Part shown: in pieces, positions 132 through 24,606 of the stretch
Layout: each line of letters starts with the position of its first letter
How positions within the stretch are numbered: position 1 is the first letter of the stretch
Source: Candidatus Levyibacteriota bacterium
GTDB taxonomy: Bacteria > Patescibacteriota > Microgenomatia > Levybacterales > UBA12049
Length of the DNA stretch: 64,000 bases
Assembly (NCBI GenBank): GCA_029260905.1
Contig: JAJDCH010000002.1
Location: 15,546 to 79,545, forward strand
Reading direction: 5' to 3'
Program-made: the position numbers and the translations under genes
The notes under the pieces: generated by a model
Told to the model about the DNA's origin: nothing
Seen by the model: the letters and a program-made list of their open reading frames with translations, nothing else
Databases searched by the model: none

Positions 132-512
132 TTATTTTTTGTATGAAAAGAAAAGTTCAAGCATGAGGAAAAGTGCTGCAAGTAAGATAAAGAAAAATGG
201 GTGGTCGATATTATTTAGCTTGAAAATAAGAGATGTTATTCCCAAAAGACTTATTAATCCTGCATGAAGAGGGGATTTGAACAAAAATAGTATTAGATAA
301 AAAATAAAGAGAAAAAGTGAAATAAGAAATAAAAGAACAATAGGTAATTTGAAAAAAAGAAGCGTAAATGTATGGTTTGGTGGGAAAAAGTAGATGAGAG
401 AAGAAAGTATTGATAGAAAGATGATGCTTAAAAATATTGATTTTAGAGATCTTTCGGGAGATTTCATAGAAAGGTTATCTGCAAGTTCCACTTCTGCCAA
501 CAACAGATACAC
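132..512 (-). CDS. Small, very hydrophobic multi-TM protein (hypothetical). The true start is probably the Met near 467, which would remove the overlap with the upstream gene.
   Basis: ORF lies immediately downstream of the pilin-like gene on the same strand. It has 3-4 predicted TM helices, but its L/F/I-rich composition could also be an artefact of AT-rich DNA. Confidence 0.3.
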   Translation of the reverse strand: MYLLLAEVELADNLSMKSPERSLKSIFLSIIFLSILSSLIYFFPPNHTFTLLFFKLPIVLLFLISLFLFIFYLILFLFKSPLHAGLISLLGITSLIFKLNNIDHPFFFILLAALFLMLELFFSYKK

Positions 513-1278
513 ATTTTAGTCCACCTTTGCATTGATTATTTCCTGCAACATCACATGATCCACCTTTTCCAATTGTTCCTTGATTTCCACCAAACTCTCG
601 GAGTTTAAGTACGTCAACACTAAGAAATTGGAGAAGAACAAGTGAGAGTATCAAGAAGATGAGTCCTACAATCGCAGCAATGAGTTGCTCACGTCCTTCT
701 TTTATTTTTTCAGGATTTCCACTAGACATCATTATCTTATATCCAGCACGCATGATCAGAAAAAGAGCTACACCGCCAGAGAGGCTCAGAAGTGCGCCAA
801 AAATTGTACTTACGTAACCACCAGGAGTTGTTGAAATAGTACCAATTGCTGTATTAAATTCTTCACAAACCTCGTATGGCTCTCCTTCTTTTGGGGCAGG
901 ATCAGCGCAAGGTGGGGGTGGAACGTTAATTATTTCAGCTGAGGGTTCACAGGTTTTAAAAAGTCCACTGCTTTGGTTAGTGCATTCAAACCCTTTCTTG
1001 CAAGCCTTTGAATTTCCACCACCTCGTCCAGTATTGTCACATCTTGCACCTTCATCAAGAGTTCCATCTTCTACACATATTGCTGGTTCGGGATCACCTG
1101 GATCAACACAACTGAAGCCTTCTTTGCATGTATCTAGAACGCCACAGGTCATTCCTTCTCCTACCTCTGCTGCAAGAACAGGCTGGGGTAGACTGATAAA
1201 AAACAAACTAACAAAAAATGAAAAAAGAAGGGCAGAAAAAATCTTTCTCACTATTTCAGCTTTGCAGAAAATTGGCAT
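475..1278 (-). CDS. Secreted Cys-rich protein carrying a C-terminal TrbC/VirB2-like two-helix pilin module. It is a paralog of the ORF at 5636..6013.
   Basis: N-terminal signal peptide. Repeated C-K-x-G-F/L-x-C motifs (CKEGFSCV, CKKGFECT, CKGGLKCV). A hydrophobic hairpin with the loop motif AGYKIMMSSGNPEKIKEG aligns with GGYNVMTSKGDPQKANIG of the 125-aa pilin-like protein. Confidence 0.55.
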   Translation of the reverse strand: MPIFCKAEIVRKIFSALLFSFFVSLFFISLPQPVLAAEVGEGMTCGVLDTCKEGFSCVDPGDPEPAICVEDGTLDEGARCDNTGRGGGNSKACKKGFECTNQSSGLFKTCEPSAEIINVPPPPCADPAPKEGEPYEVCEEFNTAIGTISTTPGGYVSTIFGALLSLSGGVALFLIMRAGYKIMMSSGNPEKIKEGREQLIAAIVGLIFLILSLVLLQFLSVDVLKLREFGGNQGTIGKGGSCDVAGNNQCKGGLKCVSVVGRSGTCR

Positions 1279-1300
1279 AAATGCAAGAGTGAAATGGCTC

Positions 1301-1329
1301 TTGACATCATTTGGCAGTCGTGTTATATT
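1301..1329 (+). promoter_or_regulatory. Sigma70-type promoter TTGACA-N17-TATATT upstream of hrcA
   Basis: TTGACA at 1301-1306 and TATATT at 1324-1329, with an exact 17-nt spacer, about 28 nt upstream of the hrcA ATG at 1357. Confidence 0.55.
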
Positions 1330-1337
1330 ATTGCTAA
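1311..1337 (+). promoter_or_regulatory. Degenerate CIRCE-like inverted repeat (HrcA operator candidate) overlapping the hrcA promoter
   Basis: TTGGCAGTC-N9-TATTGCTAA compared with the CIRCE consensus TTAGCACTC-N9-GAGTGCTAA, matching 7/9 in each half. hrcA is encoded immediately downstream. Confidence 0.35.
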
Positions 1338-1356
1338 TTCTGTTAACTTAAGTTCA

Positions 1357-2088
1357 ATGCATAATTTAACTCACAGACAAATAGAAATATTAAAAAGTAT
1401 TATTGAAGAATATATCGAGACAGCTGAGGCTGTTGGATCTGAGACTATTGAGAAGAAACACAATTTGTCAGCAAGCCCTGCAACTATTAGAAATGAGATG
1501 GTAAAGCTTGCAGAATATGGATACATCAAAAAAACCCATTCTTCAGCAGGACGTGTGCCAACAGCAAGGGGACTTAAGTTTTACGTTCATGAGTTGATGA
1601 AAGAAAAAGAGCTTTCAACTGTTGAGGAGGTAGCGCTTAAGGAAAGGGTTTGGGATTATAGAGCGAAAATGCAGAGATTTCTTAAGGAAGCAACAAGATC
1701 TCTTGCAGCAAAAACAAATACTTTGGCAATTGCCACAACAAACGAAGGTGAGCTTTATTGTTCTGGATATGCAAATATTTTAGATATGCCAGAGTTTCTT
1801 GATATAGATTTGACGAAAAACCTACTTGAAGTTTTGGATGAGTATGATGTTTTTTCAAGTATTTTTGCAAATGTCTTACCTGATGATGAAATTCATATCT
1901 TGATTGAGGATGATCTTGGATCAGCACTGAGAGGTCCATACGGATTTATTTTTACTGAGTACTCTACACCATTAAATGGTCATGGGAAGATAGGAGTATT
2001 GGGGCCTGCGCGTCTTGCCTATACATCAATAGTGCCAACTGTTAGATACTTTGGTGATTTGATAAGAACTAGTGCTGAAGGGTGGTAG
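1357..2088 (+). CDS. hrcA: Heat-inducible transcriptional repressor HrcA
   Basis: Winged-helix N-terminus and HrcA-typical segments (SASPATIRNEM, GVLGPARLAYTSI). It sits at the head of a grpE-dnaK-dnaJ operon. The start was moved to the internal Met at 1357, downstream of the promoter. Confidence 0.85.
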   Translation: MHNLTHRQIEILKSIIEEYIETAEAVGSETIEKKHNLSASPATIRNEMVKLAEYGYIKKTHSSAGRVPTARGLKFYVHELMKEKELSTVEEVALKERVWDYRAKMQRFLKEATRSLAAKTNTLAIATTNEGELYCSGYANILDMPEFLDIDLTKNLLEVLDEYDVFSSIFANVLPDDEIHILIEDDLGSALRGPYGFIFTEYSTPLNGHGKIGVLGPARLAYTSIVPTVRYFGDLIRTSAEGW

Positions 2089-2105
2089 GTTCTGCGAAGC
2101 AGAAC
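2089..2105 (+). terminator. Hairpin GTTCTGC-GAA-GCAGAAC directly after the hrcA stop codon (possible attenuating terminator)
   Basis: Perfect 7-bp stem with a 3-nt loop, followed by a short T-containing tract. Confidence 0.3.
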
Positions 2106-2146
2106 GCTTATTGTATGGCATTTAGTTTATGGTTAGTAATCATGCA

Positions 2147-2175
2147 TTGACAGAATAAGGATGAAAATTTAGAAT
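2147..2175 (+). promoter_or_regulatory. Sigma70-type promoter TTGACA-N17-TAGAAT upstream of grpE
   Basis: TTGACA at 2147-2152 and TAGAAT at 2170-2175, with a 17-nt spacer, ending 7 nt before the grpE ATG. Confidence 0.5.
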
Positions 2176-2181
2176 AAAAAA

Positions 2182-2652
2182 ATGGATAAAAAAGAAAAAA
2201 AGAAAGAAAAAAGAGATGAAAGCGCACAGATTGATAAAGAACCAGAAGAGTTAAAAGAAAAGATACATGATTTTGAGGATAAATACAAAAGAGCGCTTGC
2301 GGATTATCAAAATCTTGAAAAAAGAGTGGGTGATCAGAGAATAGAGCTTATTCGGGGAGCAAATCGAGATTTGCTCTTGAGACTTCTTCCGGTTTTGGAT
2401 ACACTGATGCTTGCGAGCGTGCATACAGAAGATCAGGGAGTAAAAGTAACTGTTCAGCAATTTATAGATACATTAAAAAACGAAGGGGTTGAACGGATTG
2501 AGACAAAAGGTGTACAATTTGATCCAACGACCATGGAGGCGATAGCCACAGGGGACGGGAAGGATGGAGAAGTTTTGGAAGAGCTGAGGACTGGTTTTAT
2601 GATAAATGGTAAATTATTAAGACCAGTTCAAGTTAAAGTAGGAAAATCCTAA
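2182..2652 (+). CDS. grpE: Nucleotide exchange factor GrpE
   Basis: Size (156 aa), a K/E-rich N-terminus and its position between hrcA and dnaK. Confidence 0.85.
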   Translation: MDKKEKKKEKRDESAQIDKEPEELKEKIHDFEDKYKRALADYQNLEKRVGDQRIELIRGANRDLLLRLLPVLDTLMLASVHTEDQGVKVTVQQFIDTLKNEGVERIETKGVQFDPTTMEAIATGDGKDGEVLEELRTGFMINGKLLRPVQVKVGKS

Positions 2653-2717
2653 ATACAAATTTCAAAAGTTTTAGGAATTAGAGATTGGAATTTAGAATTT
2701 GTCCTGAAAGGAGATTT

Positions 2718-4631
2718 ATGGGAAAAATAATAGGCATAGACCTAGGAACAACTAATTCATGTGTAGCCGTGATGGAGGGTGGTTCACCAAAGGTGATTCA
2801 TTCAGCTGAAGGGCGTAATGTCATTCCATCTGTTGTGGATCCTGTAACGCATGTTGTCGGAGATGTTGCCAAGAGACAACTTGTTCTTAAGCCAAAGCAG
2901 ACCGTCTTCTCAATCAAGAGACTGATGGGAAGAAAGTTTAAGGATAAGTCAGTTCAGGAAGACATGAAGTGGCTTCCGTATACTGTTAAAGCAGGAAGAA
3001 ATGACATGGCAGTTGTTGAGGTAGATGGTAAAACCTATACCCCTCAGGAGTTATCCGCTCAAATTCTTCAAAAGATTAAATCTGATGCTGAGAGCTATCT
3101 TGGCGATAAGGTGACTCAAGCTGTTATCACAGTTCCTGCTTATTTTGATGATTCAGAGAGACAAGCTACCAAGCAGGCAGGAGAGATTGCTGGACTTGAA
3201 GTTTTGAGGATTATCAATGAGCCAACAGCAGCAGCTCTTGCCTATGGGCTTGATAAGAAAAATGCGCACACCATTGCTGTTTATGATTTGGGTGGTGGTA
3301 CATTTGATATCTCAATCCTAGAGCTTGGAGAAGGTGTTTATCAGGTAAAATCAACTAATGGTGATACTCATCTTGGCGGAGATGATTTTGACCAGAAGAT
3401 AATTAATTATCTTGCTGAAGAGTTTCTAAAAGAAAATAGCGTGGATTTGAGAAAAGATCCTCAAGCTCTGCAAAGACTAAAAGAATCAGCTGAAAAGGCA
3501 AAGATAGAGCTTTCGAGTTCACAAGAAGCACAAATCAATCAGCCATTTATAACTCAGGGAAAAGACGGTCCCCTTCATTTGACTTTGACTCTTACAAGAT
3601 CCAAGCTTGAACAGATTGTAGATGAACTGATTCAAAATACATTAAAGCCTGTTGAGAAGGCATTAGCAGATGCAAAGATAAAAACAACTGATGTTGATGA
3701 AATAATTATGGTTGGTGGCATGACCCGAATGCCAAAAGTGGTTGAAGCAGTCACGAAATTCTTTGGTAAAGAACCAAATAAGTCAGTAAACCCAGACGAG
3801 GTTGTTGCAATAGGAGCAGCAGTTCAGGGAGGGGTTCTTGGTGGTGAGGTAAAAGATGTACTTCTTTTGGATGTGACACCTTTGACACTTGGGCTTGAGA
3901 CGCTTGGTGCTGTTTCTACACCACTTATTGACAGGAATACAACAATTCCAACTAGTAAGTCACAGGTTTTTTCAACTGCTGCTGATAACCAAACACAAGT
4001 AGAGATAAATGTTTTACAGGGTGAGAGATCAATGGCTGCTGATAACAAGTCTTTGGGACGATTTATTCTTGATGGTATTCCGCCTGCGCCTCGTGGCGTG
4101 CCACAGGTTGAGGTGACTTTTGATATTGATGCCAACGGAATACTAAGCGTTTCTGCAAAAGATAAGGCATCAGGAAAGGAGCAAAGCATTAAGATAACAG
4201 GTAGTACTGGTTTATCAAAAGAAGAAGTTGAAAAAATGACAAAAGATGCTGAGTCCCATGCTAAAGAAGATGAGGAGAAAAAGGGTAAGATTGAGGCCCG
4301 AAATCATGCAGATGCTCTTATTTTTACAGCTGAGAAGTCACTTAAAGATGCAGGGGATAAAGTAGCCGATGATGTTAAAAAAGAAGTTGAAGAAAAGACA
4401 AAAGAATTAAAAGATATTTTGGATAGTGGCACCAAAGAAGACTTGGAAACAAAGACTAATGAGCTTTCAGAAACGCTTCAAAAAATTGGTCAAGCAGCAT
4501 ATCAGCAGGGTCAGAAAGCTCAGGAAGAGCCTGAAATTGAAAGCGAAGAAAAGGAAGGTAAGAAAGATGATTCAGAATCTGAGAAGAAAAAAGATAAAGA
4601 CGAACCTGTTGAGGGAGAAGTGGTAGAATAG
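2718..4631 (+). CDS. dnaK: Molecular chaperone DnaK (Hsp70)
   Basis: N-terminal [21 protein letters not shown] and the Hsp70 substrate-binding domain. An AGGAG Shine-Dalgarno sits 7 nt before the ATG at 2718. Confidence 0.95.
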
Positions 4632-4666
4632 CTTTTAGCTTATGGCTTTTAGCTTTCAGGAATTTA

Positions 4667-4687
4667 GAGCGCAGAAGCGCTTTTTTA
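4667..4687 (+). terminator. Rho-independent terminator after dnaK (AGCGC-AGAA-GCGCT plus TTTTTT). A TATAAT at 4689-4694 may give dnaJ its own promoter.
   Basis: 5-bp GC stem and tetraloop, followed by a T6 run. Confidence 0.45.
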
Positions 4688-4706
4688 GTATAATAAAACT
4701 GTTATT

Positions 4707-5597
4707 ATGGCAAGTGAAAAAGATTATTATCAAGTTTTGGGTGTTACCAAATCAGCTAGTGCTGATGAGATAAAAAAGGCTTACCGCAAACTCGCCCTTG
4801 AGTATCATCCAGATCGCAATAAAACTAAAGAGGCAAATAATAAGTTCAAAGAAGTGACAAAGGCCTATGAAGTCCTATCAAATGATCAGAAAAGAAAGAC
4901 CTATGATCAATTCGGACATGCTGCTTTTGAGCAGGGTGGTATGGGAGGGGCAGGCGGCGGCGGTAACCCGTTTAGCGGTGGTCAACAGGGAGGACAATAT
5001 GGGCCATTTAGATACACCTATTCATCAGGCGGGCAGGGATCTGATTTTGATTTTGGAGGTTTTTCAGACCCATTTGAGATATTTGAGCAGTTTTTTGGAG
5101 GAGCGCAAAGACAGAGAAGACCTGCGTATTCAATCAGAATTAATTTTGATGAAGCAGTGAAAGGTGTTGAGAAGCAAGTAAGTATAAATGGTAAACCACA
5201 AAAAATAAAAATACCTCCAGGTGTTGATCGGGGATCTCGTATCAGATTTAGTGAATACGATATTGTGGTAGATGTAACACCTGATCCAAAATTTCAAAGA
5301 GAGGGTGCAGATATAGTTACAGTTGAGGATGTGTCTTTTCCTCAAGCTGCTCTTGGTGGAGAGCTTGAGATCGAAACAGTTCATGGAAAAGTAAAATTTA
5401 AAATACCATCAGGTACGCAGCCTGAAACACTGGTGAGGCTTAGTGGAAAGGGTATGCCAAGGATCAATAAGTCTGGAAATGGTGATCATTATGTCAAAAT
5501 TAAAGTTACAGTTCCTAAGAAGCTGAATAGGGATCAGAAAAAGATTCTGGAAGATCTTCTCAAAGAAGAGAAAAAATCAGGAAAAAGCTGGTTTTGA
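4707..5597 (+). CDS. dnaJ: J-domain co-chaperone (DnaJ/CbpA-like). It has a G/F-rich region but no CxxCxGxG zinc finger.
   Basis: J domain with HPD (YHPDRNK), Gly/Phe-rich linker and C-terminal substrate-binding domains. No Cys-rich repeats are present. Confidence 0.85.
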
Positions 5598-5635: not shown

Positions 5636-6013
5636 ATGGCTCGTTTCGTTCTTTCTATATTTTTTTTGTTTGTTTTTATTTTTTCACCAGTTCAGGTATT
5701 TGCAGCAGGGTCAGGAGCGGATTGTGATTATTCAAAGGAGATAAATACTGATTTTGGTTGTCTTCCCAATGATCCGATTGGATTTGTGCAGGAATTTTAT
5801 GGAATAGGACTTAGCTTTATTGCAGCGCTTTCTCTTTTGGCGTTAATAATTGGAGGCTATAATGTGATGACATCCAAGGGAGATCCACAAAAAGCAAATA
5901 TCGGCAAATCATGGATATTTTATGCAATTGGAGGTTTGGTTCTTGCAATTTTTGGATATATATTTATAAGACTTATAATCGTTGATATTTTGAAGGTTCC
6001 AGGATTCTCATAG
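5636..6013 (+). CDS. VirB2/TrbC-like type IV secretion pilin-like protein (signal peptide plus two hydrophobic helices)
   Basis: 125 aa. Signal peptide, then helix-loop-helix with the loop GGYNVMTSKGDPQKANIGKS. It is a paralog of the C-terminal module of ORF 475..1278. Confidence 0.5.
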   Translation: MARFVLSIFFLFVFIFSPVQVFAAGSGADCDYSKEINTDFGCLPNDPIGFVQEFYGIGLSFIAALSLLALIIGGYNVMTSKGDPQKANIGKSWIFYAIGGLVLAIFGYIFIRLIIVDILKVPGFS

Positions 6014-6016
6014 TTT

Positions 6017-8512
6017 ATGAAAAAACTTCTGCCCAGTCTAATACTCTTTCTTTCTGTTTTTTTGGGAATAATGTTTTTTAATACTCCTCAGACTTTGGCT
6101 ACAGGCGCTTCTCCAGGTACAACTGCAACTACGGTAAGTGATGATAAATTGCCTGCTGGCACATGGAGACAAGATTCTGAAGTTACATTTATAGGTAAAA
6201 GCGCAGCAAGAGCCCGCACCATGCTTGATTGGACTATCCAAAATTATAATTGGATTTGTGTCGAGCGTATAGTAGGCACAAGTCAGTGTAATGATACAGA
6301 TAATCCCCTTCAGTCATTTTGGTTGAGGATTGTTACCTATATTGTGGTACCGCTTTTGTTCGTGGCAGTTTTGATTAGTGCTGCAGTAATCATTATTACA
6401 CGTGGAAGATCTGTTACCATCATGCGGCTTTTACCTCGTTTCTTGGGTGTTGTGATTTTAATCTTTTTTACCTATTCACTTCTGCAGTTTTTTTATCAGT
6501 TCTCTGATTTGATACAAGGATTTTTTCTTCGTCATCCAACAGAAACAGCACAGGATGGGACAACATCTTGTCCCCCAAGCTGTATTGGAACTAAAGATTT
6601 GTTATATGTTGGTTGGGATTATGATACTTTTCTTGGCTTGAGACTCGCAAGCCCAGATGCAAATAATTCAAATGCTGAGTCAGCATTCATGTCGCTTCTT
6701 CTCACCAAAATGACTGCCATGACTTACTACGTAATGGTAGGGATTCTTATTTTGAGGAAGATTATTTTATGGTTTTTTATTGTAGTATCGCCTGTCTTTC
6801 CGTTACTTTTGTTATTTTATCCTATCAGAAACACTGCCAAAATCTGGATTGGTGAGTTTTTCCGTTGGCTTCTTTATGCTCCGCTTTTTGCAATTTTTCT
6901 TCAGGGTCTTGTTTTTATGTGGAGTAATCCAGTTGGAATACCGCTTGACTTTAAATCAACAAAAATAGGAGTTGAGCAGGGCAGGATTGGTTCACCTGCC
7001 AAGGATGAGAATACGCTTTTTCCAACAACAGTAAATATTCTTCTCGGGGGTCCACAGGAGGTTGTAACTATTAGCAATAGTATTAATCTTACAGAAACAT
7101 TTGCGAAGTATGTTGTTGCTCTTTTGATGCTTTGGGGCGTTATCATTCTACCCTGGATACTCCTTCAGATCTTTTTGGATTATTCATCCAATTTTTCTGT
7201 AGGTGATACAGCTGTGATGAGAACCCTTCTTAATGTTAAAAATAAACCCCCAGCTCCTACTGGCACCCCTCCGAGTACCGGTCCGCCATTTAGCTTACCA
7301 TTTGCAAAGAAATTTGATTTGCGTCCTCCACAAACCCCACCCTCTGCACCAACTGGAGTAGCCAAGGAATTGCCTATTAGTACAGGTCGAATGATGCAGT
7401 CACATAATATGCCATCAGCTCAGATTAAGGCTCAGACTCTTAGTCTTTCAAATGTTACCCTTCCAACAATTCGTGATATTGCAAAATACGACACAGCAAT
7501 CACTTCTCGTGATACTACCAAGCAACAGGATATTATTAGGATGAGAGATACTCTGACAAAGATCGGTAATCCTGCAAGTTCCAGTTCTGACAGCCAGCGT
7601 TACACCGAAGTCCGCAGCAAGCTAACAAAAGAAAGCCAAGATGGAAATCAGTTGGCAGCATCAATTCTTAGCGCAGCAAATATAGCTACCAACAAGTCTG
7701 CTCAAAATCAAAATAGGCAAATAAAGAATGTTCTTAACCAGATAGCTAATCCAACAACAGCACCAGCTGTTACAAAGAAATTTGACACTCAAAAAGTTGC
7801 TCAGCTTCATGATTCGCTTGCTAAAGCAAGTAAGCAAGGAAACGCTTTGGCAACTTCTATTCTTTCAGTTGATGAAAAGACATCAGAAAAAGAAATTGAG
7901 GCATTGAAAGAGAAAATAGCACAGGCTAAAAAACGAAGCGATAAGCTTGCAGCTGAGGTGTTAGATGTTACAGATAAAGAAGTGGAAGCAGGCCTTCCTG
8001 CCGTAAATAGAGTTCAGACTGTCAGTCAGCAGGATTACCAGGCAGTTAAGGATATGTGGAGAGAGAATTACAAGAATCTTGAAGTTCCACAAGGCATGGC
8101 CGGAACAAGATCAGATTGGATCAAAGAAGATGTTGAAAAAATTAATAATATTGTAAACATGCTTTCATCAACCAGTCCGGATGACATGAAGAAGGGAATG
8201 GATGAAGTTTCTGATATTTTGCCTTTCCTTCTGGTTGGTGGCTTCTCTCAGACAGAAATTATATCTTATTTGAAGGCAAAGAAAGAAGCAGGACAAGAAG
8301 TAAATAGTCAACTTGCCACAGAGGAGGATGATAAGGTAGAGGTTTCAACACAGAAAGCAGAAACAAAACGAGAGATGGCTGCAACGCTTGAAGAGGAAGA
8401 TGCTACAAAGGGACAGGAGGCAAGTCAACCGTCATCTGTTTCTGTTCCTGATGAACCAAAAGTTGATGATGAAAAAGCAGTTAAGCCTGCAGATGAGAAC
8501 AAAAAACAATAA
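6017..8512 (+). CDS. Polytopic membrane protein, possibly VirB6/TrbL-like. It has a long hydrophilic C-terminal tail carrying repeats.
   Basis: Signal/anchor sequence, at least 6 predicted TM helices, then a P/T-rich linker. A C-terminal repeat module (KASKQGNALATSILS...) is homologous to the C-terminus of the downstream Clp ATPase. Confidence 0.45.
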   Translation: MKKLLPSLILFLSVFLGIMFFNTPQTLATGASPGTTATTVSDDKLPAGTWRQDSEVTFIGKSAARARTMLDWTIQNYNWICVERIVGTSQCNDTDNPLQSFWLRIVTYIVVPLLFVAVLISAAVIIITRGRSVTIMRLLPRFLGVVILIFFTYSLLQFFYQFSDLIQGFFLRHPTETAQDGTTSCPPSCIGTKDLLYVGWDYDTFLGLRLASPDANNSNAESAFMSLLLTKMTAMTYYVMVGILILRKIILWFFIVVSPVFPLLLLFYPIRNTAKIWIGEFFRWLLYAPLFAIFLQGLVFMWSNPVGIPLDFKSTKIGVEQGRIGSPAKDENTLFPTTVNILLGGPQEVVTISNSINLTETFAKYVVALLMLWGVIILPWILLQIFLDYSSNFSVGDTAVMRTLLNVKNKPPAPTGTPPSTGPPFSLPFAKKFDLRPPQTPPSAPTGVAKELPISTGRMMQSHNMPSAQIKAQTLSLSNVTLPTIRDIAKYDTAITSRDTTKQQDIIRMRDTLTKIGNPASSSSDSQRYTEVRSKLTKESQDGNQLAASILSAANIATNKSAQNQNRQIKNVLNQIANPTTAPAVTKKFDTQKVAQLHDSLAKASKQGNALATSILSVDEKTSEKEIEALKEKIAQAKKRSDKLAAEVLDVTDKEVEAGLPAVNRVQTVSQQDYQAVKDMWRENYKNLEVPQGMAGTRSDWIKEDVEKINNIVNMLSSTSPDDMKKGMDEVSDILPFLLVGGFSQTEIISYLKAKKEAGQEVNSQLATEEDDKVEVSTQKAETKREMAATLEEEDATKGQEASQPSSVSVPDEPKVDDEKAVKPADENKKQ

Positions 8513-8555: not shown

Positions 8556-11500
8556 ATGTTTGGGAAATTATTTGATCAAAAAAAAGAAGATGATCAAAAT
8601 GCTGCTGCCCCCCAACAGGGACAGGCTACTCAGTATTTTGATCAGCCACCTCCTGGTCAGCAACAGGTAGCACCGAATCAACCGGCTCAGCAAGTAGTTG
8701 CTCAACAGCCAGTAGCACCGACGCCTACTCCTCAAGCTAGTCCTGCAGATAACGCTGCTTCTCCAATTCAGAGTCAGGTTTCACCTCCTGTTGATGGAGC
8801 AACTTCAGCACAGCAGCAAGAACCTATACAGCCAGACACCTCTGCTGCACTTACTCATCTTGACCCTTTAGCAACTCAGGTTTTGACACGAGCGCAGGAA
8901 GAAACAAAAAGAATAAATCAACAGTTTATTGAACCCGAACAGATTTTACTTGCGATAATAAATGATCAGCAGACATATAAGCTTTTGGATGAGTTTAAGA
9001 TTGACGGAGGAGCTCTTTCAAAAGAAATTCAGTCAAAAGAGACAATGGGCGTTTTTAAGTCTCAGCCAACCCTTAGTCCTGTCTCGCAGAAGATTTTTGA
9101 TGCATCTTACAAAGATGCAAAGAATAGAGGCTCCAACTTTGTCACTCCTCAGGATATTTTTATACAGCTTTTATCCAAAGATTATCCTGTTTCAAATTAT
9201 CTAACAAGCAAAGGGCTTATGAAAGAAGCAGTAATTGAAAAGATGGCAAAAAACGCTGATCTTAATTATTCACATAAAACTATTCTTGAAACATATGCAA
9301 CAGACCTAACAGAGGAAGCGCGAACAGGCAAGCTTGATCCTGTTGCAGGACGTGAAAAAGAAGTTGATAGGATTGTTCATATTTTACTTCGAAGAACTAA
9401 AAATAACCCGATTATAATAGGAGAAACTGGAGTTGGAAAAACAGCAATAGTTGAGGGGCTTGCCCAGCAAATCGCAGCTGGTCAGGTTCCAAAAGATTTA
9501 CAAAATAAAAGAGTTTTTCAGCTTGATGTCTCATCTCTTATTGCAGGAGCCTCCCACAGGGGTGAATTTGAAGAAAGACTGCGTGGTGTTGTGAATGAAG
9601 TAATGGGATCCAATAATACAATTATTCTTTTTATTGATGAAATCCACAGTCTCTTAGGAACTGGTGATGGTGAAGGAATGAGTGCAGCAAACATCATAAA
9701 ACCACACCTTGCTCGTGGTCATTTGCAAATGATCGGTGCCACGACAACTATTGAATATAGAAAAAATTTTGCGAAAGACAAGGCGTTTGAGAGACGATTT
9801 CAGCCAGTTACTGCTGAGGAGCCATCTGAGGAAAATGCAGTCGAGATGCTTAAGGTTTTGAGACAAAAATATGAGAAGTTTCATAAGGTAGAAGTTTCTG
9901 ATGATACTTTGGTTGAGTGTGTGAAGCTCTCAAAGAAATATATTGGTGAACGTTATCTACCTGACAAGGCAGTTGATCTTTTGGATGAAGCATGTTCTGA
10001 GGTAAAATTGCAGATAGATGCAGGAAAGAGAAAAGAAGCTCAAGTAAGAAAAGGAGACATAGAAAAAGTTGTCAGTATTTGGACTGGTATTCCTATTACC
10101 AAATTAACAGAAGATGAAAGTCAAAAGCTTCTTAAGCTTGAAGATAGAATTCATAAGAGACTGATTGATCAGGAGCAGGCAGTTGTTGCTGTTGCTGAAG
10201 CGGTAAGGCGTGGAAGAATAGGTCTTGCTGCTGCAAATAGACCAATTGCATCCTTTATATTCCTTGGCCCAACAGGCACGGGTAAGACGGAACTTGCAAA
10301 GACTTTGGCGGAGCTTCTTTTTGGAAGAGATGACGCGATGGCAAGGCTTGACATGTCTGAGTATATGGAGAAGCATGAGGTTGCTAAGCTAATTGGCGCG
10401 CCACCAGGATATGTTGGTTATGAAGAGGGTGGTCAGCTCACAGAAGCAGTTCGCAAGAAGCCTTATTCAATCGTTCTTCTTGACGAGATCGAAAAAGCGC
10501 ATCCTGATGTTTTTAATATACTTTTACAGCTTCTTGAAGATGGAAGACTTACAGATAATAAAGGAAATACAATTTCTTTTAAGAATACAATTGTTATTTG
10601 TACGTCCAATATTGGTAGTAGCTTGATTCAGCAGAAATTAAATGAGCATGATTCAAAGACAGCAAAGACCAAGGAAGAATCAGAAAAACTATTCGAAGAA
10701 TTAACAGCTCTTGCAAAAGAAGAATTGGTCAAATTTTTCAGGCCTGAGCTTTTGAACAGATTTGATGAGACAGTTATTTTCAGGCCTCTTCTGCTTGAGC
10801 ATATGGCCGGCATCACAAGACTTGGTATTAAGAAAACAGCAGGTCTTTTGAAGGAGCAGGGATATAATCTTCAGATTACAGAAAAAGCAATTGCGCAACT
10901 TGCAAAAGATGGTTACGATCCTGTTTATGGGGCAAGACCTCTGAGAAGGCTTATTCAAACAGCGATTGAAAATCCTGTGGCGCTTGAGATTATATCCAAA
11001 AGATTTACACCTGGAGATACAATCTTAATTGATTATGATTCTGAGAAAAATACATTCGTGTTTACAAAAGGTGAGCAGAGCAAGGTATTTAATTCTGAAA
11101 ACATTAAAAAGACTTTGATGGGTGTTTTGCATCCTGAAACAGCCAGCGAAGATGATAAGGAAAAGCTGAAAATCCTGCATGATAAGGTCGAAGAAGCAGC
11201 CAAAAACGGTAATGAGCTAGCAGCAAGGATAATGGCTATGTCTGATGCAACAACAGCTGAAGAGACTCAAAAGATAATGGATGATTTGAAGGTTGCGCGA
11301 GAGAAAGAGGATCCTGTTTCTGCAGATATTTTAGCCTACGTTAATGCTGTTCTTTCAGCGCAAGCAACAGTAGAGCAGGAAGCTGATCCGATGTTTATAT
11401 TCAAGAAAAAGCTTCAGCAAATAGCAAATCCTTTGTATACAGCTGATGAAAAAGATAAAGAAAAATTTAATCATCTAAATGATATGCTTACAAAAGCTAG

Positions 11501-12059
11501 TCAGGAAAACAACGAATGGGCAAAAACTATACTGGCTTTAACAGATCAGACATCTGATACAGATATAGAAAAAATAAAAACAGATCTTGAAAAAGCAAAG
11601 GCAAATGGAGATCAGTTGGCAATCAACGTCCTGCAGGCGATATCTGATTCTGAGACAGCTGAGGTGGCTGGGTCCAGTCAAGAAGAAACTACCAAAGAAC
11701 CAGTTGCTGGCGCAGAAGATAAAAAAGCTGAGGGGGTACCACCTGTTCCAGTATCAGTGGCTGATCAGCCAAAAGAAGTGGTAAAGCCCGCTGTTGATTC
11801 ATCAAAAGGTGCGCCGTTTGGTTTGGCAAACGCGCCAAGTGCGCCTGACACAAGTCATATTACACCAGTTGAGTCCGTTGTTGCAGATCAGCCCGTTGTA
11901 GTTGCAGGAAATCCTGCGCCAGTTGAACCAACACCTCCTGCATCAGGAGGAGCGACCCTATCACAAAGTGCTGGAATGACAGCTTTGAATGAGCACTTAG
12001 AAAAAGAAAACAACATCATTTCTACCTCAGTCGAATCCGATGGTGAGAATATTTCCTAA
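8556..12059 (+). CDS. Clp-family AAA+ ATPase with two nucleotide-binding domains. It is ClpA-like, with no ClpB M-domain, and has an N-terminal Q/P-rich extension and a C-terminal repeat extension.
   Basis: Clp N-domain repeats. D1 Walker A IIIGETGVGKT; D2 Walker A FLGPTGTGKTE. LLDEIEKAHPDVFNILLQLLEDGRLTD and GARPLRRLIQ are present. The D1-D2 linker is short, like ClpA. No IG[FL] ClpP-docking tripeptide was seen. Confidence 0.8.
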   Translation: MFGKLFDQKKEDDQNAAAPQQGQATQYFDQPPPGQQQVAPNQPAQQVVAQQPVAPTPTPQASPADNAASPIQSQVSPPVDGATSAQQQEPIQPDTSAALTHLDPLATQVLTRAQEETKRINQQFIEPEQILLAIINDQQTYKLLDEFKIDGGALSKEIQSKETMGVFKSQPTLSPVSQKIFDASYKDAKNRGSNFVTPQDIFIQLLSKDYPVSNYLTSKGLMKEAVIEKMAKNADLNYSHKTILETYATDLTEEARTGKLDPVAGREKEVDRIVHILLRRTKNNPIIIGETGVGKTAIVEGLAQQIAAGQVPKDLQNKRVFQLDVSSLIAGASHRGEFEERLRGVVNEVMGSNNTIILFIDEIHSLLGTGDGEGMSAANIIKPHLARGHLQMIGATTTIEYRKNFAKDKAFERRFQPVTAEEPSEENAVEMLKVLRQKYEKFHKVEVSDDTLVECVKLSKKYIGERYLPDKAVDLLDEACSEVKLQIDAGKRKEAQVRKGDIEKVVSIWTGIPITKLTEDESQKLLKLEDRIHKRLIDQEQAVVAVAEAVRRGRIGLAAANRPIASFIFLGPTGTGKTELAKTLAELLFGRDDAMARLDMSEYMEKHEVAKLIGAPPGYVGYEEGGQLTEAVRKKPYSIVLLDEIEKAHPDVFNILLQLLEDGRLTDNKGNTISFKNTIVICTSNIGSSLIQQKLNEHDSKTAKTKEESEKLFEELTALAKEELVKFFRPELLNRFDETVIFRPLLLEHMAGITRLGIKKTAGLLKEQGYNLQITEKAIAQLAKDGYDPVYGARPLRRLIQTAIENPVALEIISKRFTPGDTILIDYDSEKNTFVFTKGEQSKVFNSENIKKTLMGVLHPETASEDDKEKLKILHDKVEEAAKNGNELAARIMAMSDATTAEETQKIMDDLKVAREKEDPVSADILAYVNAVLSAQATVEQEADPMFIFKKKLQQIANPLYTADEKDKEKFNHLNDMLTKASQENNEWAKTILALTDQTSDTDIEKIKTDLEKAKANGDQLAINVLQAISDSETAEVAGSSQEETTKEPVAGAEDKKAEGVPPVPVSVADQPKEVVKPAVDSSKGAPFGLANAPSAPDTSHITPVESVVADQPVVVAGNPAPVEPTPPASGGATLSQSAGMTALNEHLEKENNIISTSVESDGENIS

Positions 12060-12114: not shown

Positions 12115-12450
12115 GTGAGCATGAATTCTTATCTGTCTATTCCACTTATTATTTTGAAGTTTTGGTATTTTGAGGCGCCAAGGGGAATTCTTGGTTATTT
12201 TGGATCGCTTAATAAAGCTTTTTTTGATTTCTTTTCACTACCTCTTTTTCTTAAGACCTATTTTAAGCCCCTGAAAAATGAATACAGACAAGGCTTGGTT
12301 GGTTTCTCAAGAGCAATGGGAATTATCATAAAGACAGGCTTTATTGTGATTGATCTGATAATCTTAGCCACTCTTTTAGTATTTGAGATAGGAGTAATTG
12401 TCGGATTTTTGGCATTTCCGATTCTTACTTTTTGGATGTTGTTTGTTTGA
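12115..12450 (+). CDS. Small membrane protein (hypothetical)
   Basis: 111-aa ORF with hydrophobic helices, lying between the two Clp-like genes. Confidence 0.4.
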   Translation: MSMNSYLSIPLIILKFWYFEAPRGILGYFGSLNKAFFDFFSLPLFLKTYFKPLKNEYRQGLVGFSRAMGIIIKTGFIVIDLIILATLLVFEIGVIVGFLAFPILTFWMLFV

Positions 12451-12459
12451 AAAGAAAAT

Positions 12460-14868
12460 ATGTTTTTTTACGCACGAATTTATCATTTTTACAGGCGAGC
12501 TTTATTAAGAGCCATACGCCTTTTTGTTTTTGCTGTTTTGCTTCTTATTATTTGGCCAAGTGTAGAGGCAGGAGGCTTGCCGAAAATTCCACTTTTCTTG
12601 TTTAATCTTTTTGTTATTTGGGAGATATTTTTTCATTTTAAGATTGGGCGTGTGATGCCTAGTTTAACAATTGAAAAGAATCAAAAAAAAGATCCTTATT
12701 TATCTTTTACACTCCAGGCAATTCTTCCATTTGTAGAGGAAGTAAAGACAGGAAATATTATAAGAAAAATTGTTAAGTACCCGCAAATTAAAGCCATAAT
12801 GCAAAAAGCAGACATAGAAGACAAAGACTTGAATTTTCCAGATGTGCCAGTTGATCTTTTGGCGCAATCCGCTTTTGAAACAGCACGTACGTTCAGGGCA
12901 AAATATGTGACATCTATTGATCTTTTTGCAGCATACATTTTTCTTATAGAGAAAGACACCGAGCTTCTTTTTGCCAAACAATTAAAGATAGATGATCTAA
13001 ATAATATTGTACGTTGGGCAAAGATAGAGTATCCAGATGAAGAAGAGCCCAAGAAAATAAGGACAGGGTCGTTGGGTGAGGGAATAGGAGAAGTATTAAC
13101 AACTGGATGGACTTATGAAACCAAAAAATATACAGTATCATTTTCATCTATTGCTCTTGGCAATAAACCTTTGATACTTGGGAGAGAGGCTGAATTTCGA
13201 CAATTAATTGAGACACTTATAAAAATAGAAAATAATAATGTGCTGCTGGTTGGAAATATAGGTGCGGGAAAGGAGAATTTGGTGCGGGCATTTTCTTATT
13301 ATTCTTTTACGGGTGAGCTTGGAGGGCTTCTCAATTACAAAAAAGTACTTCAACTTCTTACTGGTGCATTGACAGCTGGCGCATCACAAAGAGGAGATCT
13401 TGAAGTACGACTCCAAGAAATAATTGCTGAGATATCACATGCTGAGAATGTGCTTATTTATATACCTGATATTGAAAATATACTTGGTGGCGCGTCCTAC
13501 AACCTTGATTTATCAGGGGCACTGCTTCCTTATCTCAAGACAGGCAATCTGCCGGTTGTGGCAACTATGACAACTGGTGCTTACAAAACCTACATGGAGA
13601 AAAATCCGATTAAGGAGGCTTTTACTGTTATAAGTCTTTCAGATCCAGGCCCTGATGTTGCAACACAAATGGTACTTAGTGAGGCAAAAAAGATTGAGAA
13701 AAAATACAATGCCATCATTACATATGGTGCTGTTAAATCTTCTGTTGAGTTAGCCGGGAGATTTCTTCAGGATCAGGTACTTCCGGGTAGTGCTGTATCA
13801 CTTCTTGAGACAGTTGCAAATAAAGTTGCGCTTGATAAAAACGTTGTTTATTTTGAGCATACCAAGAAAAAAGCAGTTCTCAAGGATCATGTGGTTAGTG
13901 AGGTGGAGACTGAGGCGCATGTGGCAATCGGCACACCAAGCGATCAGGAGATAGAGCTACTTTTACATCTTGAGGAGAGGCTTCATGCGCGGGTTATCCA
14001 TCAGGATGAGGCCATCACTGCCATATCTGAGGCGATGAGAAGAGTCAGATCGGGAATGAGTACTAGCGAGAGGCCTGTCTCATTTTTGTTTCTTGGCCCA
14101 ACTGGTGTGGGCAAGACTGAGACAGCCAAGGCTCTTGCTGATTTTTATTTTGGTGGTGTCAAAAATATGATCAGGCTTGATATGAGTGAGTACTCAGATG
14201 ATGCGGGAGTAAGGCGTCTTCTTGGAGCGCTTCCAGGTGAGGGACAGGAAAGAGGAGAGCTGACTGATAAGATTCATGATAATCCAGCAAGCCTTGTTCT
14301 TCTTGATGAGTTTGAAAAAGCAAATCCCAAGATTCATAATTTATTTCTCCAGGTTTTGGATGATGGACGATTAACTGATAATAAAGGTGTGACTGTAAGT
14401 TTCCGTAACGCCATAATCATCGCCACATCCAATGCAGGATCTGAATTTATTCGTGAAGAAGTGGGAAAAGGTGTGGCAGTTGATAAAAGTTTTCAAAGAA
14501 ATCTGCTCGAGCATCTTCAGACTAATAGGCTTTTTAAGCCTGAACTTCTTAATCGATTTGATGATGTAGTTACCTTTAAACCACTTGCCAATGAAGACGT
14601 AATTCAAGTTGTAAAATTAATGCTTGGCAACTTGATTAAAACAATGGCTGAACAAGATATAGTCCTCGCCTTTGATGATGCTGTTATTGAGAAGATTAGC
14701 AAAGAAGGTTTTGACGCGCAGTTTGGGGCTAGGCCACTGAAGCGTTATATTCAGGATAATCTTGAGGACATAATTGCCCAGAAAAAACTTACAAAAGAAC
14801 TGGATAGAGGCAAGAGAGCTTCTTTCTCAATTGATGGAACAGGCGCGCTGACTGTAACCATTTCGTAA
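12460..14868 (+). CDS. Membrane-anchored Clp-like AAA+ protein. D1 is degenerate; D2 is intact but lacks the pore-loop tyrosine.
   Basis: N-terminal TM helices. D1 Walker A is GNIGAGKE and D1 Walker B is IPDIEN (degenerate). D2 has FLGPTGVGKTE, LVLLDEFEKA and GARPLKR intact. GALPGEGQ replaces the GYVG pore loop. Confidence 0.7.
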   Translation: MFFYARIYHFYRRALLRAIRLFVFAVLLLIIWPSVEAGGLPKIPLFLFNLFVIWEIFFHFKIGRVMPSLTIEKNQKKDPYLSFTLQAILPFVEEVKTGNIIRKIVKYPQIKAIMQKADIEDKDLNFPDVPVDLLAQSAFETARTFRAKYVTSIDLFAAYIFLIEKDTELLFAKQLKIDDLNNIVRWAKIEYPDEEEPKKIRTGSLGEGIGEVLTTGWTYETKKYTVSFSSIALGNKPLILGREAEFRQLIETLIKIENNNVLLVGNIGAGKENLVRAFSYYSFTGELGGLLNYKKVLQLLTGALTAGASQRGDLEVRLQEIIAEISHAENVLIYIPDIENILGGASYNLDLSGALLPYLKTGNLPVVATMTTGAYKTYMEKNPIKEAFTVISLSDPGPDVATQMVLSEAKKIEKKYNAIITYGAVKSSVELAGRFLQDQVLPGSAVSLLETVANKVALDKNVVYFEHTKKKAVLKDHVVSEVETEAHVAIGTPSDQEIELLLHLEERLHARVIHQDEAITAISEAMRRVRSGMSTSERPVSFLFLGPTGVGKTETAKALADFYFGGVKNMIRLDMSEYSDDAGVRRLLGALPGEGQERGELTDKIHDNPASLVLLDEFEKANPKIHNLFLQVLDDGRLTDNKGVTVSFRNAIIIATSNAGSEFIREEVGKGVAVDKSFQRNLLEHLQTNRLFKPELLNRFDDVVTFKPLANEDVIQVVKLMLGNLIKTMAEQDIVLAFDDAVIEKISKEGFDAQFGARPLKRYIQDNLEDIIAQKKLTKELDRGKRASFSIDGTGALTVTIS

Positions 14869-23271: not shown

Positions 23272-24606
23272 ATGGATCCAACTGCCCAAAATCCACAAAA
23301 TCCTGCAGGCGCGACCACAGCTCAAACACCGCAACAGCCAACACCTGAGGAGCAGGCTGCTGCAGGGAGGGGAGATGCAGCACCTATTCAAAATAGCACT
23401 GTTCAGGCGCAAAACTCATCTGAGGCTGAGGCTTTGAGTAAGGTTGCATCTGTTAATTCTGCACAAATGATAAATAACGATAAGACTCAATTTGAGGCCA
23501 ATCAGGCGCAAAATAGCACGAACACACCAGTAACTGATCATGGAAGATCTTCTGATCAGATCCGCGTGCTTGGTGAAAAAATTGAAAAAGCAGCAATTCC
23601 TGAGGATTTCAAAAAAGAACTGCTTGATCGTATTTCACGGCTTGCAATGATAAGATCAAGCGCCGGTTTTCTTAGCTCAACCTACATAATGGAGTATGAA
23701 TCAACCAATAGATTTGTTAATTGGGTTCTTAGTCTTCCGTGGGGCAAGAAAAGTGAGGACGTGCTTGATCTCAACCGCGCCAAGGAGTGGATGGATAAAA
23801 ATCACTATGGACTTGAGCCGCTTAAACAAAGAGTGCTGGAGTATATAGCATCACTAATGTTAAATATCAAGAATTATGGTCAGACAGAAAATGTAATAAA
23901 GGCGCCAATTCTTTGCATAGTAGGTCTTGCCGGAACTGGTAAAACGACTTTTGCAAGATCTCTTGCTGGAGCCTTAGGTAGAGAGTTTGAGCGTATTCCA
24001 TTTGGAGGTATGGCTGATTCGCGCGTATTGAGAGGTCAGTCGCGTTATTTTCCTGATGCAGAACCTGGACAAGTTATGAAGAGACTTGCAAAGGCGGGTA
24101 CTAATAATCCTGTTATTCTTCTTGATGAGTTGGATCGTGTAACTGATACAGCAAGAGCTGATATCATGGGTGTTCTTATTGAGATACTTGATCCGGAACA
24201 AAACGCCAGATTTACTGATCATTACATAGACTATCCATTTAGCTTGCAAAACGTTTTATTTGTCGCAACAGCAAATAATGTCAGCAGTGTTTCAACTGCC
24301 GTTCTTGACCGTTTAGAAATAATACAAATGCCATCATACAATGATGAAGAAAAAACAGTTATCGGACGGGATTTTGTGTTGCCAAAGACAATGCAAACAA
24401 CTGGTCTTAAGCCTGAGCAGATGACTATTGATCCTGCTGTTTGGGAAGGGTTGGTGCGTCCTCTTGGTTATGATCCTGGTGTCCGTGGACTTGAGCGGGT
24501 CATAACTGGAATGTGTAGAAAAGCTGCGAAAATAATCATATCTGGTCAGGCGCAATCAGTTGTCATAAATAACGAAAATGTGAAACAGTTTTTGCCTGAG
24601 TGGTAA
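23272..24606 (+). CDS. Lon-family AAA+ ATPase module with no LAN N-terminal domain and no S16 protease domain. The N-terminus is Q/N/A-rich low complexity.
   Basis: Strong colinear similarity to the Lon coiled-coil and AAA+ region: LPWGKKSEDVLDLNRAKEWMDKNHYGLEPLKQRVLEYIA, GLAGTGKTT, VILLDELDRV, EILDPEQNARFTDHY, VLDRLEII and DPGVRGLERVITGMCRKAA. The ORF ends where the Lon protease domain would begin. Confidence 0.75.
   Translation: MDPTAQNPQNPAGATTAQTPQQPTPEEQAAAGRGDAAPIQNSTVQAQNSSEAEALSKVASVNSAQMINNDKTQFEANQAQNSTNTPVTDHGRSSDQIRVLGEKIEKAAIPEDFKKELLDRISRLAMIRSSAGFLSSTYIMEYESTNRFVNWVLSLPWGKKSEDVLDLNRAKEWMDKNHYGLEPLKQRVLEYIASLMLNIKNYGQTENVIKAPILCIVGLAGTGKTTFARSLAGALGREFERIPFGGMADSRVLRGQSRYFPDAEPGQVMKRLAKAGTNNPVILLDELDRVTDTARADIMGVLIEILDPEQNARFTDHYIDYPFSLQNVLFVATANNVSSVSTAVLDRLEIIQMPSYNDEEKTVIGRDFVLPKTMQTTGLKPEQMTIDPAVWEGLVRPLGYDPGVRGLERVITGMCRKAAKIIISGQAQSVVINNENVKQFLPEW

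Follow-up and report, generated by a model that had tools for sequence, protein, structure and literature searches.

A membrane-anchored Clp/Hsp100-like ATPase with a degenerate first ring and tyrosine-less pore loops, paired with a small membrane protein in Patescibacteria

In a stretch of 64,000 nucleotides from a Candidatus Levyibacteriota bacterium (contig JAJDCH010000002.1, positions 15,546 to 79,545; hereafter the window), an intact open reading frame (ORF) at 12460..14868 encodes a Clp/Hsp100-like ATPase of 802 amino acids that is predicted to be anchored in the membrane, and the ORF directly ahead of it, at 12121..12450, encodes a small membrane protein of 109 amino acids. Clp/Hsp100 ATPases are textbook soluble threading motors. 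We propose, with about as much belief as doubt, that these two genes encode a two-component membrane AAA+ machine that derives from the class-I Clp/Hsp100 proteins, would be driven by its second ATPase ring (D2) and would work without classical threading. The first ring (D1) keeps the AAA+ fold and is without the catalytic glutamate and both arginine fingers, its Walker A threonine being replaced by glutamate.

The locus belongs to a family, here called the transmembrane (TM)-Clp family, whose members have an N-terminal TM segment, a D1 without arginine fingers, an intact D2 and a small protein encoded upstream or fused, all of which are found at this locus. The family is hidden behind the database label 'ClpA/ClpC'. 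A full-text literature search found no account of an integral-membrane Clp/Hsp100 with a dead D1 and tyrosine-less pore loops, or of this patescibacterial family. It is thus apparently undescribed. In architecture and function it is a variant within a known superfamily, and its partner family is uncharacterised. It is conserved across Patescibacteria (the candidate phyla radiation, CPR, bacteria), a large and mostly uncultured radiation whose envelope biology is poorly understood. All features of the two genes given below lie on the + strand.

Degenerate D1 and intact D2 of the ATPase

The protein has the class-I Clp/Hsp100 architecture, with two tandem AAA+ modules and both the AAA_lid_9 and the ClpB_D2-small lid present. 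A Pfam scan matched AAA_2 at residues 540-702 (3e-45), ClpB_D2-small (1e-20) and AAA_lid_9 (1.5e-7), and gave no significant AAA match over D1. The closest solved relative is Bacillus subtilis ClpC (3j3t; phmmer E 4e-107, in two segments), and the top Foldseek matches of an AlphaFold2 (AF2) model of the ATPase are ClpC, ClpB and ClpA. The NCBIfam models of ClpB, ClpA, ClpK, ClpG and ClpV all match the protein far under their equivalog cut-offs; the ClpB model TIGR03346 reaches 424 bits where the cut-off is 1232, and the ClpA model TIGR02639 reaches 385 bits where it is 993.

Motif equivalences were set by three alignments, one to ClpC 3j3t, one to a canonical Clp encoded upstream in the window (MAFFT) and one to 90 diverse homologs (MAFFT). 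Every loop is flanked by conserved anchors and has the same placement in the MAFFT alignments, which rules out a realignment that would put the canonical motifs elsewhere. An earlier note, made from the sequence alone, had described the gene as an atypical, membrane-anchored Clp-like protein and had named alignment to Clp/Hsp100 sequences beforehand as a check. The motif strings that it quoted all lie at the positions it gave, and the alignments did not place canonical residues anywhere else.

D1 is a pseudo-ATPase module (13171..13884) by alignment to ClpC and the homologs. Its Walker A reads GNIGAGKE (13252-13275, residues 265-272), where ClpC has GEPGVGKT, with the lysine retained and the threonine changed to glutamate (GKT to GKE). 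At the Walker B position, LIYIPDIEN (13453-13479), the segment YIPDIE aligns to FIDELH of ClpC, replacing the DE pair by PD. The alignment to ClpC bears out what the earlier note had said of both motifs. Two further losses had been overlooked there. The D1 pore loop, AGASQRGDLE (13375-13404), is without the tyrosine of its ClpC equivalent AGTKYRGEFE (KYR to SQR), and both D1 arginine fingers are gone at KEAFTV (13612-13629), where ERRFQ of ClpC is replaced by KEAFT. Of the marks of a competent D1, namely a GK[ST] Walker A, a Walker B DE and arginine fingers, the protein thus has none (GKE, PD and KEAFT). The earlier prediction of a nucleotide-binding-deficient D1 stands in part. These motif states make a loss of D1 hydrolysis well supported; the loss of binding was overstated, since the P-loop lysine of GxxGxGK is invariant within the clade.

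D2, by alignment, is a predicted active ATPase module (13942..14574). Its Walker A (GPTGVGKTE, 14095-14121), Walker B (LLDEFEKA, 14299-14322) and sensor-2 (GARPLKR, 14725-14745, within the ClpB_D2-small lid domain at 14584..14829) are intact, as the earlier note had stated, and so are the sensor-1 TSN 3' of Walker B and the arginine finger LLNRFD (R699; 14545-14562). The D2 pore loop, GALPGEGQERGE (14224-14259), has no aromatic residue and carries a two-residue deletion: GSPPGYVGYDEGG of ClpC aligns to GALPG-E-GQERG here (GYVGY to GEGQ), and no Y, F or W occurs between the flanking LLGA and GELT anchors. The missing tyrosine reported earlier is therefore confirmed between conserved anchors. 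Two other absences had not been noticed before. D2 has no ClpP-docking [LIV]-G-[FL] loop, the VGF of ClpC aligning to VGKGVAV and the family consensus being EKGTKI, and the D1-D2 linker is without an insertion, leaving no M-domain. The loss of both pore-loop tyrosines, together with that of the D1 catalytic glutamate and arginine fingers, strengthens the view that a threading unfoldase would not typically look like this.

A predicted transmembrane hairpin would turn the entry face towards the membrane

The first 62 or so residues hold two hydrophobic helices, in agreement with the N-terminal TM helices described earlier. They form a predicted TM hairpin (12499..12645), with TM1 at residues 14-36 and TM2 at residues 42-62. 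Kyte-Doolittle 19-mer hydropathy peaks at 2.4 and 1.7 in this region and exceeds 1.2 nowhere else, and the AF2 model (mean pLDDT 84.6, pTM 0.72, built from a 69-sequence alignment) has helices at exactly these residues with a pLDDT of about 90. A basic amphipathic helix (residues 2-12) precedes the hairpin in the model. Lysines and arginines number 5, 1 and 5 in the N-terminal flank, the loop and the C-terminal flank, respectively, which fits an N-in/C-in hairpin with a cytoplasmic ATPase. TM2 carries a conserved FNLFVMxEVFFHxKI motif that includes an invariant E55.

The hairpin is followed by an all-helical N-domain in the AF2 model (residues 79-190; 12694..13029). Comparison of this domain with canonical Clp N-domains by hhalign gave a marginal match over a single 41-column repeat (E 0.011); Pfam Clp_N has no match in the ATPase, and the ClpA model aligns only from residue 124. 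An N-in/C-in hairpin in the cytoplasmic membrane would point the N-domain/D1 face, the substrate entry face of Clp/Hsp100 proteins, at the membrane.

This geometry brings in the main rival explanation, in which the ATPase is still a threading motor and serves as an extractase of membrane proteins or as a dislocase in quality control, with a function like that of FtsH or Msp1. Unconventional D2 loops, which are non-aromatic, would draw membrane or secreted proteins through the D1-to-D2 channel to the cytoplasm, and the small protein would be a delivery or anchoring subunit. It is the main rival because the entry face is predicted to lie against the membrane and because some relatives keep the D2 tyrosine. 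The fully intact D2, which is the main motor of Hsp100s, is a further point for it, set against an ATPase without a protease-partner loop.

Conservation of the altered motifs across Patescibacteria

A word-indexed search returned more than 120 clusters at 59-70% identity to the ATPase, nearly all of about 802 residues; their labels, where given, are Levyibacteriota, Roizmanbacteria or Patescibacteria, and their annotation is only 'ClpA/ClpC'. The altered motifs are kept in 120 homologs as GDIGAGKE, LYIPDFQN (YIPDF), KEAFTV, GAPPGEGDERGE and GAPPG--EGDERGE, and the degenerate motifs are 60-99% conserved per column in this set, a pattern beyond chance that indicates purifying selection on them. 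The D2 catalytic motifs are all more than 90% conserved in the close family, and more than 150 columns are invariant, including the altered motifs and every D2 catalytic residue. The maintenance of degenerate motifs in more than 120 relatives argues that they are not the product of gene decay. A decaying, non-functional Clp paralog would account for the loss of several catalytic and substrate-contact motifs, but more than 100 clusters carry an intact ORF of equal length, AF2 models the protein with confidence and the partner gene is conserved as well. The conservation pattern effectively refutes decay, to which we give almost no credence. The D2 position equivalent to the tyrosine is about 60% conserved and is occupied by E, Q, K or A; this variability suggests that the contact is no longer critical.

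Relatives were further sought in one genome per GTDB species. Full-length relatives occur in Levyibacteriota, and proteins of 800-990 residues with 28-39% identity occur in Nealson-, Falkow- and Buchananbacteria, other Parcubacteria, WWE3, Berkelbacteria and Saccharibacteria. HMMER with residues 1-480 added about 45 full-length 50%-identity representatives, which align from the TM hairpin on at identities down to about 25%. Many contigs with 60-66%-identical members and Patescibacteria-type synteny (L013, L014, L016, L017, L020, L021, L023, L028 and others) are titled 'uncultured Gammaproteobacteria', 'Lysobacterales', 'Acidiferrales' or 'Limnocylindrales'; they look like mislabelled records of metagenome-assembled genomes and not like real occurrences outside Patescibacteria.

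We sorted 192 two-ring proteins into 134 with and 58 without an N-terminal TM segment. Of the TM-bearing proteins, 3/134 keep the D1 arginine fingers, as against 54/58 of the others; for the D1 Walker B DE the counts are 20/134 against 54/58, and for the D1 Walker A GK[ST] 55/134 against 55/58. These counts are phylogenetically non-independent and still give a clear split. The pore loops follow the same division, with an aromatic residue present in D1 in 2/134 against 19/58 and in D2 in 36/134 against 55/58. The D2 arginine finger is present in 134/134 TM-bearing proteins and in 54/58 without the segment. In a crude neighbour-joining tree the canonical proteins form one clade and every TM form falls outside it.

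A small membrane protein as the conserved partner

The small membrane ORF reported earlier at 12115..12450 exists, and its true start is likely the ATG at 12121, as the database entry P0121 has 109 residues; the GTG at 12115 would give 111. No Pfam, NCBIfam or PADLOC family matches the protein, and its 266 homolog clusters are every one labelled 'hypothetical'. In an AF2 model (pLDDT 91) a helix at residues 6-39 leads through an invariant basic loop into a 49-residue helix at residues 62-110. The invariant loop motif, FKPLKNEYRQGLVGFS (residues 50-65 numbered from GTG 12115; 12262..12309), is predicted to be cytoplasmic. The long helix (12298..12444) is hydrophobic, and it bears an invariant intramembrane D80 and E91 and a conserved P102.

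Wherever upstream sequence is available for a distinct close locus (20 of 20), the small ORF lies directly upstream of the ATPase gene on the same strand. The gap is 9 nucleotides (nt) here, and in relatives the two genes often overlap by 4-16 nt. A hidden Markov model of the small protein also finds ORFs of 125-135 residues at the equivalent position in distant lineages. After de-duplication (n=46), 38 distant loci have a separate small ORF, and in 5 the ATPase carries it as an N-terminal fusion. A profile-profile comparison between the small proteins of close and of distant loci gave a probability of 96% (E 2e-9 over 97 columns; reversed control 0.3%). When the neighbours of 51 distant members were clustered de novo, the small ORF was the sole widely shared one, in 40 loci, the next best being shared by 16; the other neighbours (GlyRS-like, Tgt-like and pilin-like genes, in at most 16/51 loci) represent lineage-level synteny.

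The five fusions, proteins of about 855 residues, come from WWE3/Saccharibacteria-type loci. They begin with a small-protein-like region and a long hydrophobic helix; a short polar break separates this helix from one TM helix, after which a basic stretch leads into the AAA+ body. The even count of membrane passes would put the conserved loop and the ATPase on one side, the cytoplasmic one. Conserved linkage and fusion together are strong evidence that the two proteins would form a physical two-subunit complex. The idea that the pair is instead a split gene, the small ORF plus 802 residues giving 913 and resembling Parcubacterial proteins of 895-935 residues, was rejected, as those long forms own a separate upstream small ORF.

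One Parcubacterial subclade (L044, L048, L050, L053, L056-L060, L063) has ORFs like type IV pilins, with an N-terminal KGFTLVQLIISISIF, upstream of the small-ORF/TM-Clp pair, 16 ORFs in 9 loci. Lineage synteny may account for them, or they may point to a connection with surface appendages.

The earlier note had taken the ATPase for a possible regulator or partner of the upstream canonical Clp (8556..12059, + strand). Such a partnership might take the form of mixed hexamers or of recruitment of that Clp to the membrane. The two genes share a strand and are separated by 55 nt plus the small ORF, and a promoter/terminator scan found no terminator-like site after the canonical Clp and a single 9/12 promoter-like site ahead of the small ORF. 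Most Levyibacteriota loci also have a canonical Clp homolog in the 8 kb upstream. Two loci (L004/L005) lack it, however, and none of the 51 distant members of the family has one adjacent, so the adjacency looks like clade-level synteny, as do the dnaK-operon and nusA-infB flanks of the Levy clade. In a mixed ring, moreover, D1 would be without the arginine fingers required to complete the neighbour's active site, and the conserved and sometimes fused partner is the small protein. Comparative genomics thus offers no positive evidence for a functional link between the ATPase and the canonical Clp, and we judge the partnership improbable. Of the Clp-small protein-Clp arrangement proposed for testing in relatives, it is the small protein/ATPase pair that is kept across lineages; adjacency of the first Clp is confined to Levyibacteriota.

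A proposed membrane remodelling machine

The processive unfolding that Clp/Hsp100 proteins carry out depends critically on aromatic pore loops, which Torsins lack (PMC5425593). The absence of such loops from the Levy-clade ATPase suggests that it probably performs remodelling work rather than classical threading. In the two-component machine that we propose, D1 would be a structural or assembly ring and D2 the sole motor. As a stoichiometric membrane subunit, the small protein would touch the TM hairpin, the N-domain or both, possibly through its invariant KPLKNEYRQG loop and through intramembrane carboxylates (E55 of the ATPase, D80 and E91 of the small protein). Such a machine would be coupled neither to a protease nor, as ClpB is, to DnaK, and it would not grip and thread polypeptides as ClpA, ClpB and ClpC do. 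Cycles of ATP hydrolysis in D2 would instead work on the conformation of the partner embedded in the membrane, or of clients there, in a Torsin- or Bcs1-like remodelling.

Several points weigh against this proposal. About one quarter of the TM forms, none of them in the Levy clade, still have a D2 loop with an aromatic residue, such as GAPPGYSG. The loss of the tyrosine is thus lineage-specific within the family, and the ancestor may have threaded; tyrosine-less loops might themselves still translocate weakly. The entry geometry suits an FtsH- or Msp1-like extractase equally. The TM call is drawn from hydropathy, AF2 helices and the positive-inside rule, the physical complex from gene linkage and fusion, and the motif counts from related proteins.

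On the other side, an extractase has to be reconciled with two pore loops that are both non-aromatic in the Levy clade and with a D2 loop that is acidic, two residues shorter and variable at the tyrosine position, where aromatic residues are critical to its relatives. The Levy-clade module does lie downstream of the hrcA-grpE-dnaK-dnaJ genes (1294..5597 in the window), which speaks for an extractase, but this link is limited to one clade. A search of the 64-kb window for a CIRCE-like operator, TTAGCACTC-N9-GAGTGCTAA with at most 3 mismatches, found none, and HrcA/CIRCE control was rejected on this ground. We consider the extractase possible, and clearly less probable than D2-driven remodelling. 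A threading function would challenge the need for aromatic pore loops. A non-threading one would make the family a bacterial counterpart of the Torsin problem, a pore-loop-less Clp-clade ATPase at the membrane.

A bolder form of the remodelling proposal, which we regard as speculative and rather unlikely, is an ancient Patescibacteria-specific machine in which a non-threading hexameric D2 motor on a dead D1 scaffold would drive a ring of 12-18 TM helices containing E55, D80 and E91, and would serve as an ATP-powered gate, a transporter or a membrane/lipid remodeller. If true, it would be a new output of the Hsp100 scaffold and could bear on envelope handling in these lipid- and nutrient-dependent episymbionts.

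Comparison with known AAA+ systems

ClpC, ClpA and ClpB share with the ATPase the two tandem AAA+ modules, the AAA_lid_9 and ClpB_D2-small lids and D2 catalytic motifs that are identical in kind. The ATPase differs from all three in being predicted to be membrane-integral, in its degenerate D1, in having no pore-loop tyrosine in either ring, in an N-domain whose match to the Clp_N double repeat is marginal and covers one repeat, and in its dedicated small membrane partner. It further differs from ClpA and ClpC in having no ClpP-docking loop, and from ClpB and ClpC in having no M-domain.

By its features the protein resembles the Torsins, which act with LAP1/LULL1 in the eukaryotic endoplasmic reticulum and nuclear envelope: they belong to a Clp/Hsp100-related clade, associate with the membrane through an N-terminal hydrophobic segment and have no aromatic pore loops. 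They likewise have a membrane-spanning cofactor, and a non-threading action has been proposed for them (PMC5425593). Torsins, however, form a single ring whose own arginine finger is missing and is supplied by the cofactor, whereas the D2 finger is universal in the TM-bearing proteins sorted above. The Torsin cofactor is a degenerate AAA+ fold, in contrast to the helical membrane protein of about 110 residues found here, and the TM-Clp proteins have an extra pseudo-ATPase D1 ring.

FtsH and Msp1/ATAD1 are alike in having an N-terminal TM anchor and a ring entry face set against the membrane. They are single-ring AAA proteins of the classical clade with essential aromatic pore loops, and FtsH has an M41 protease domain; the ATPase described here is a two-ring Clp-clade protein with neither aromatic pore loops nor a protease domain. 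In NSF (D2) and Pex1/Pex6 (D1) one of the stacked rings is inactive, presumably for assembly, while the other works. The likeness to them is one inactive ring, which for the ATPase is predicted from its motif states; they belong to another AAA+ clade, are soluble and retain aromatic pore loops in the active ring. Plasmodium HSP101 in PTEX and chloroplast Hsp93/ClpC at TIC are soluble canonical threading Hsp100s recruited by protein-protein contacts. The likeness would lie in an Hsp100 motor placed at a membrane with membrane subunits; unlike them, the ATPase would itself be membrane-integral and has lost the threading tyrosines.

Genomic neighbourhood

An ATPase next to a small TM protein is a layout that resembles some defence systems, and PADLOC matched the ATPase to DolB (Dodola) and to PDC-M37B. 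The pair might accordingly be an anti-phage defence or mobile-element module with a small membrane effector. These matches span only the generic AAA_2 core (residues ~460-670), however, and the small protein has none. Furthermore, the synteny is conserved among housekeeping genes (the dnaK operon, nusA, infB and PNPase), the module is conserved superphylum-wide, and a search for relatives on viral contigs gave none. We consider a defence role very improbable.

The canonical two-ring Clp at 8556..12059 has 1167 residues, intact motifs, a score of 859 bits with the ClpB model, a Q/P-rich N-terminal tail and a repeat-bearing C-terminal tail; the gene lies outside the conserved module. This Clp is unusual in its own right. 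In all Levy-clade orthologs its D1 pore loop reads SHR, with histidine for the usual tyrosine, and the protein is without an M-domain and a ClpP-docking loop. The extensions of these canonical Clps comprise a Q/P-rich N-terminus of about 100 residues and a C-terminus of 330 to 650 residues.

In the interval that separates the dnaK operon from the Clp genes, the window encodes a T4SS_pilin-family (PF18895) small protein (5636..6013, +) and a weakly TrbL/VirB6-like membrane protein of 831 residues (6017..8512, +); a second PF18895 protein is encoded at 475..1278 (-). In loci of the Levy clade, pilin, TrbL-like and Clp genes recur together as a block. The TrbL/VirB6-like protein and the canonical Clp have C-terminal tails (7450..8512 and 11060..12059) with a common repeat of about 50 residues (blastp E 1e-17) and the core ...NP...DK.K...LHD.L.KAS..GN.LA..IL...D.TS..EIE..., through which a TrbL-like probe also matches canonical Clp ORFs at other loci. 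This repeat may be a docking or self-association module that ties the soluble Clp to the TrbL/VirB6-like membrane protein.

Further downstream, a protein of 444 residues (23272..24606) combines AAA and Lon_lid without a Lon protease domain and recurs downstream in several related loci. An ORF of 821 residues without a Pfam match (26447..28912) lies in the segment where both GC content (0.436) and GC skew (0.31) are the highest of the window. An AT-skew-negative block at about 34-40 kb, amid housekeeping genes, holds a protein of 772 residues (36232..38550, -) with a weak Baseplate_J-like domain (5.6e-7).

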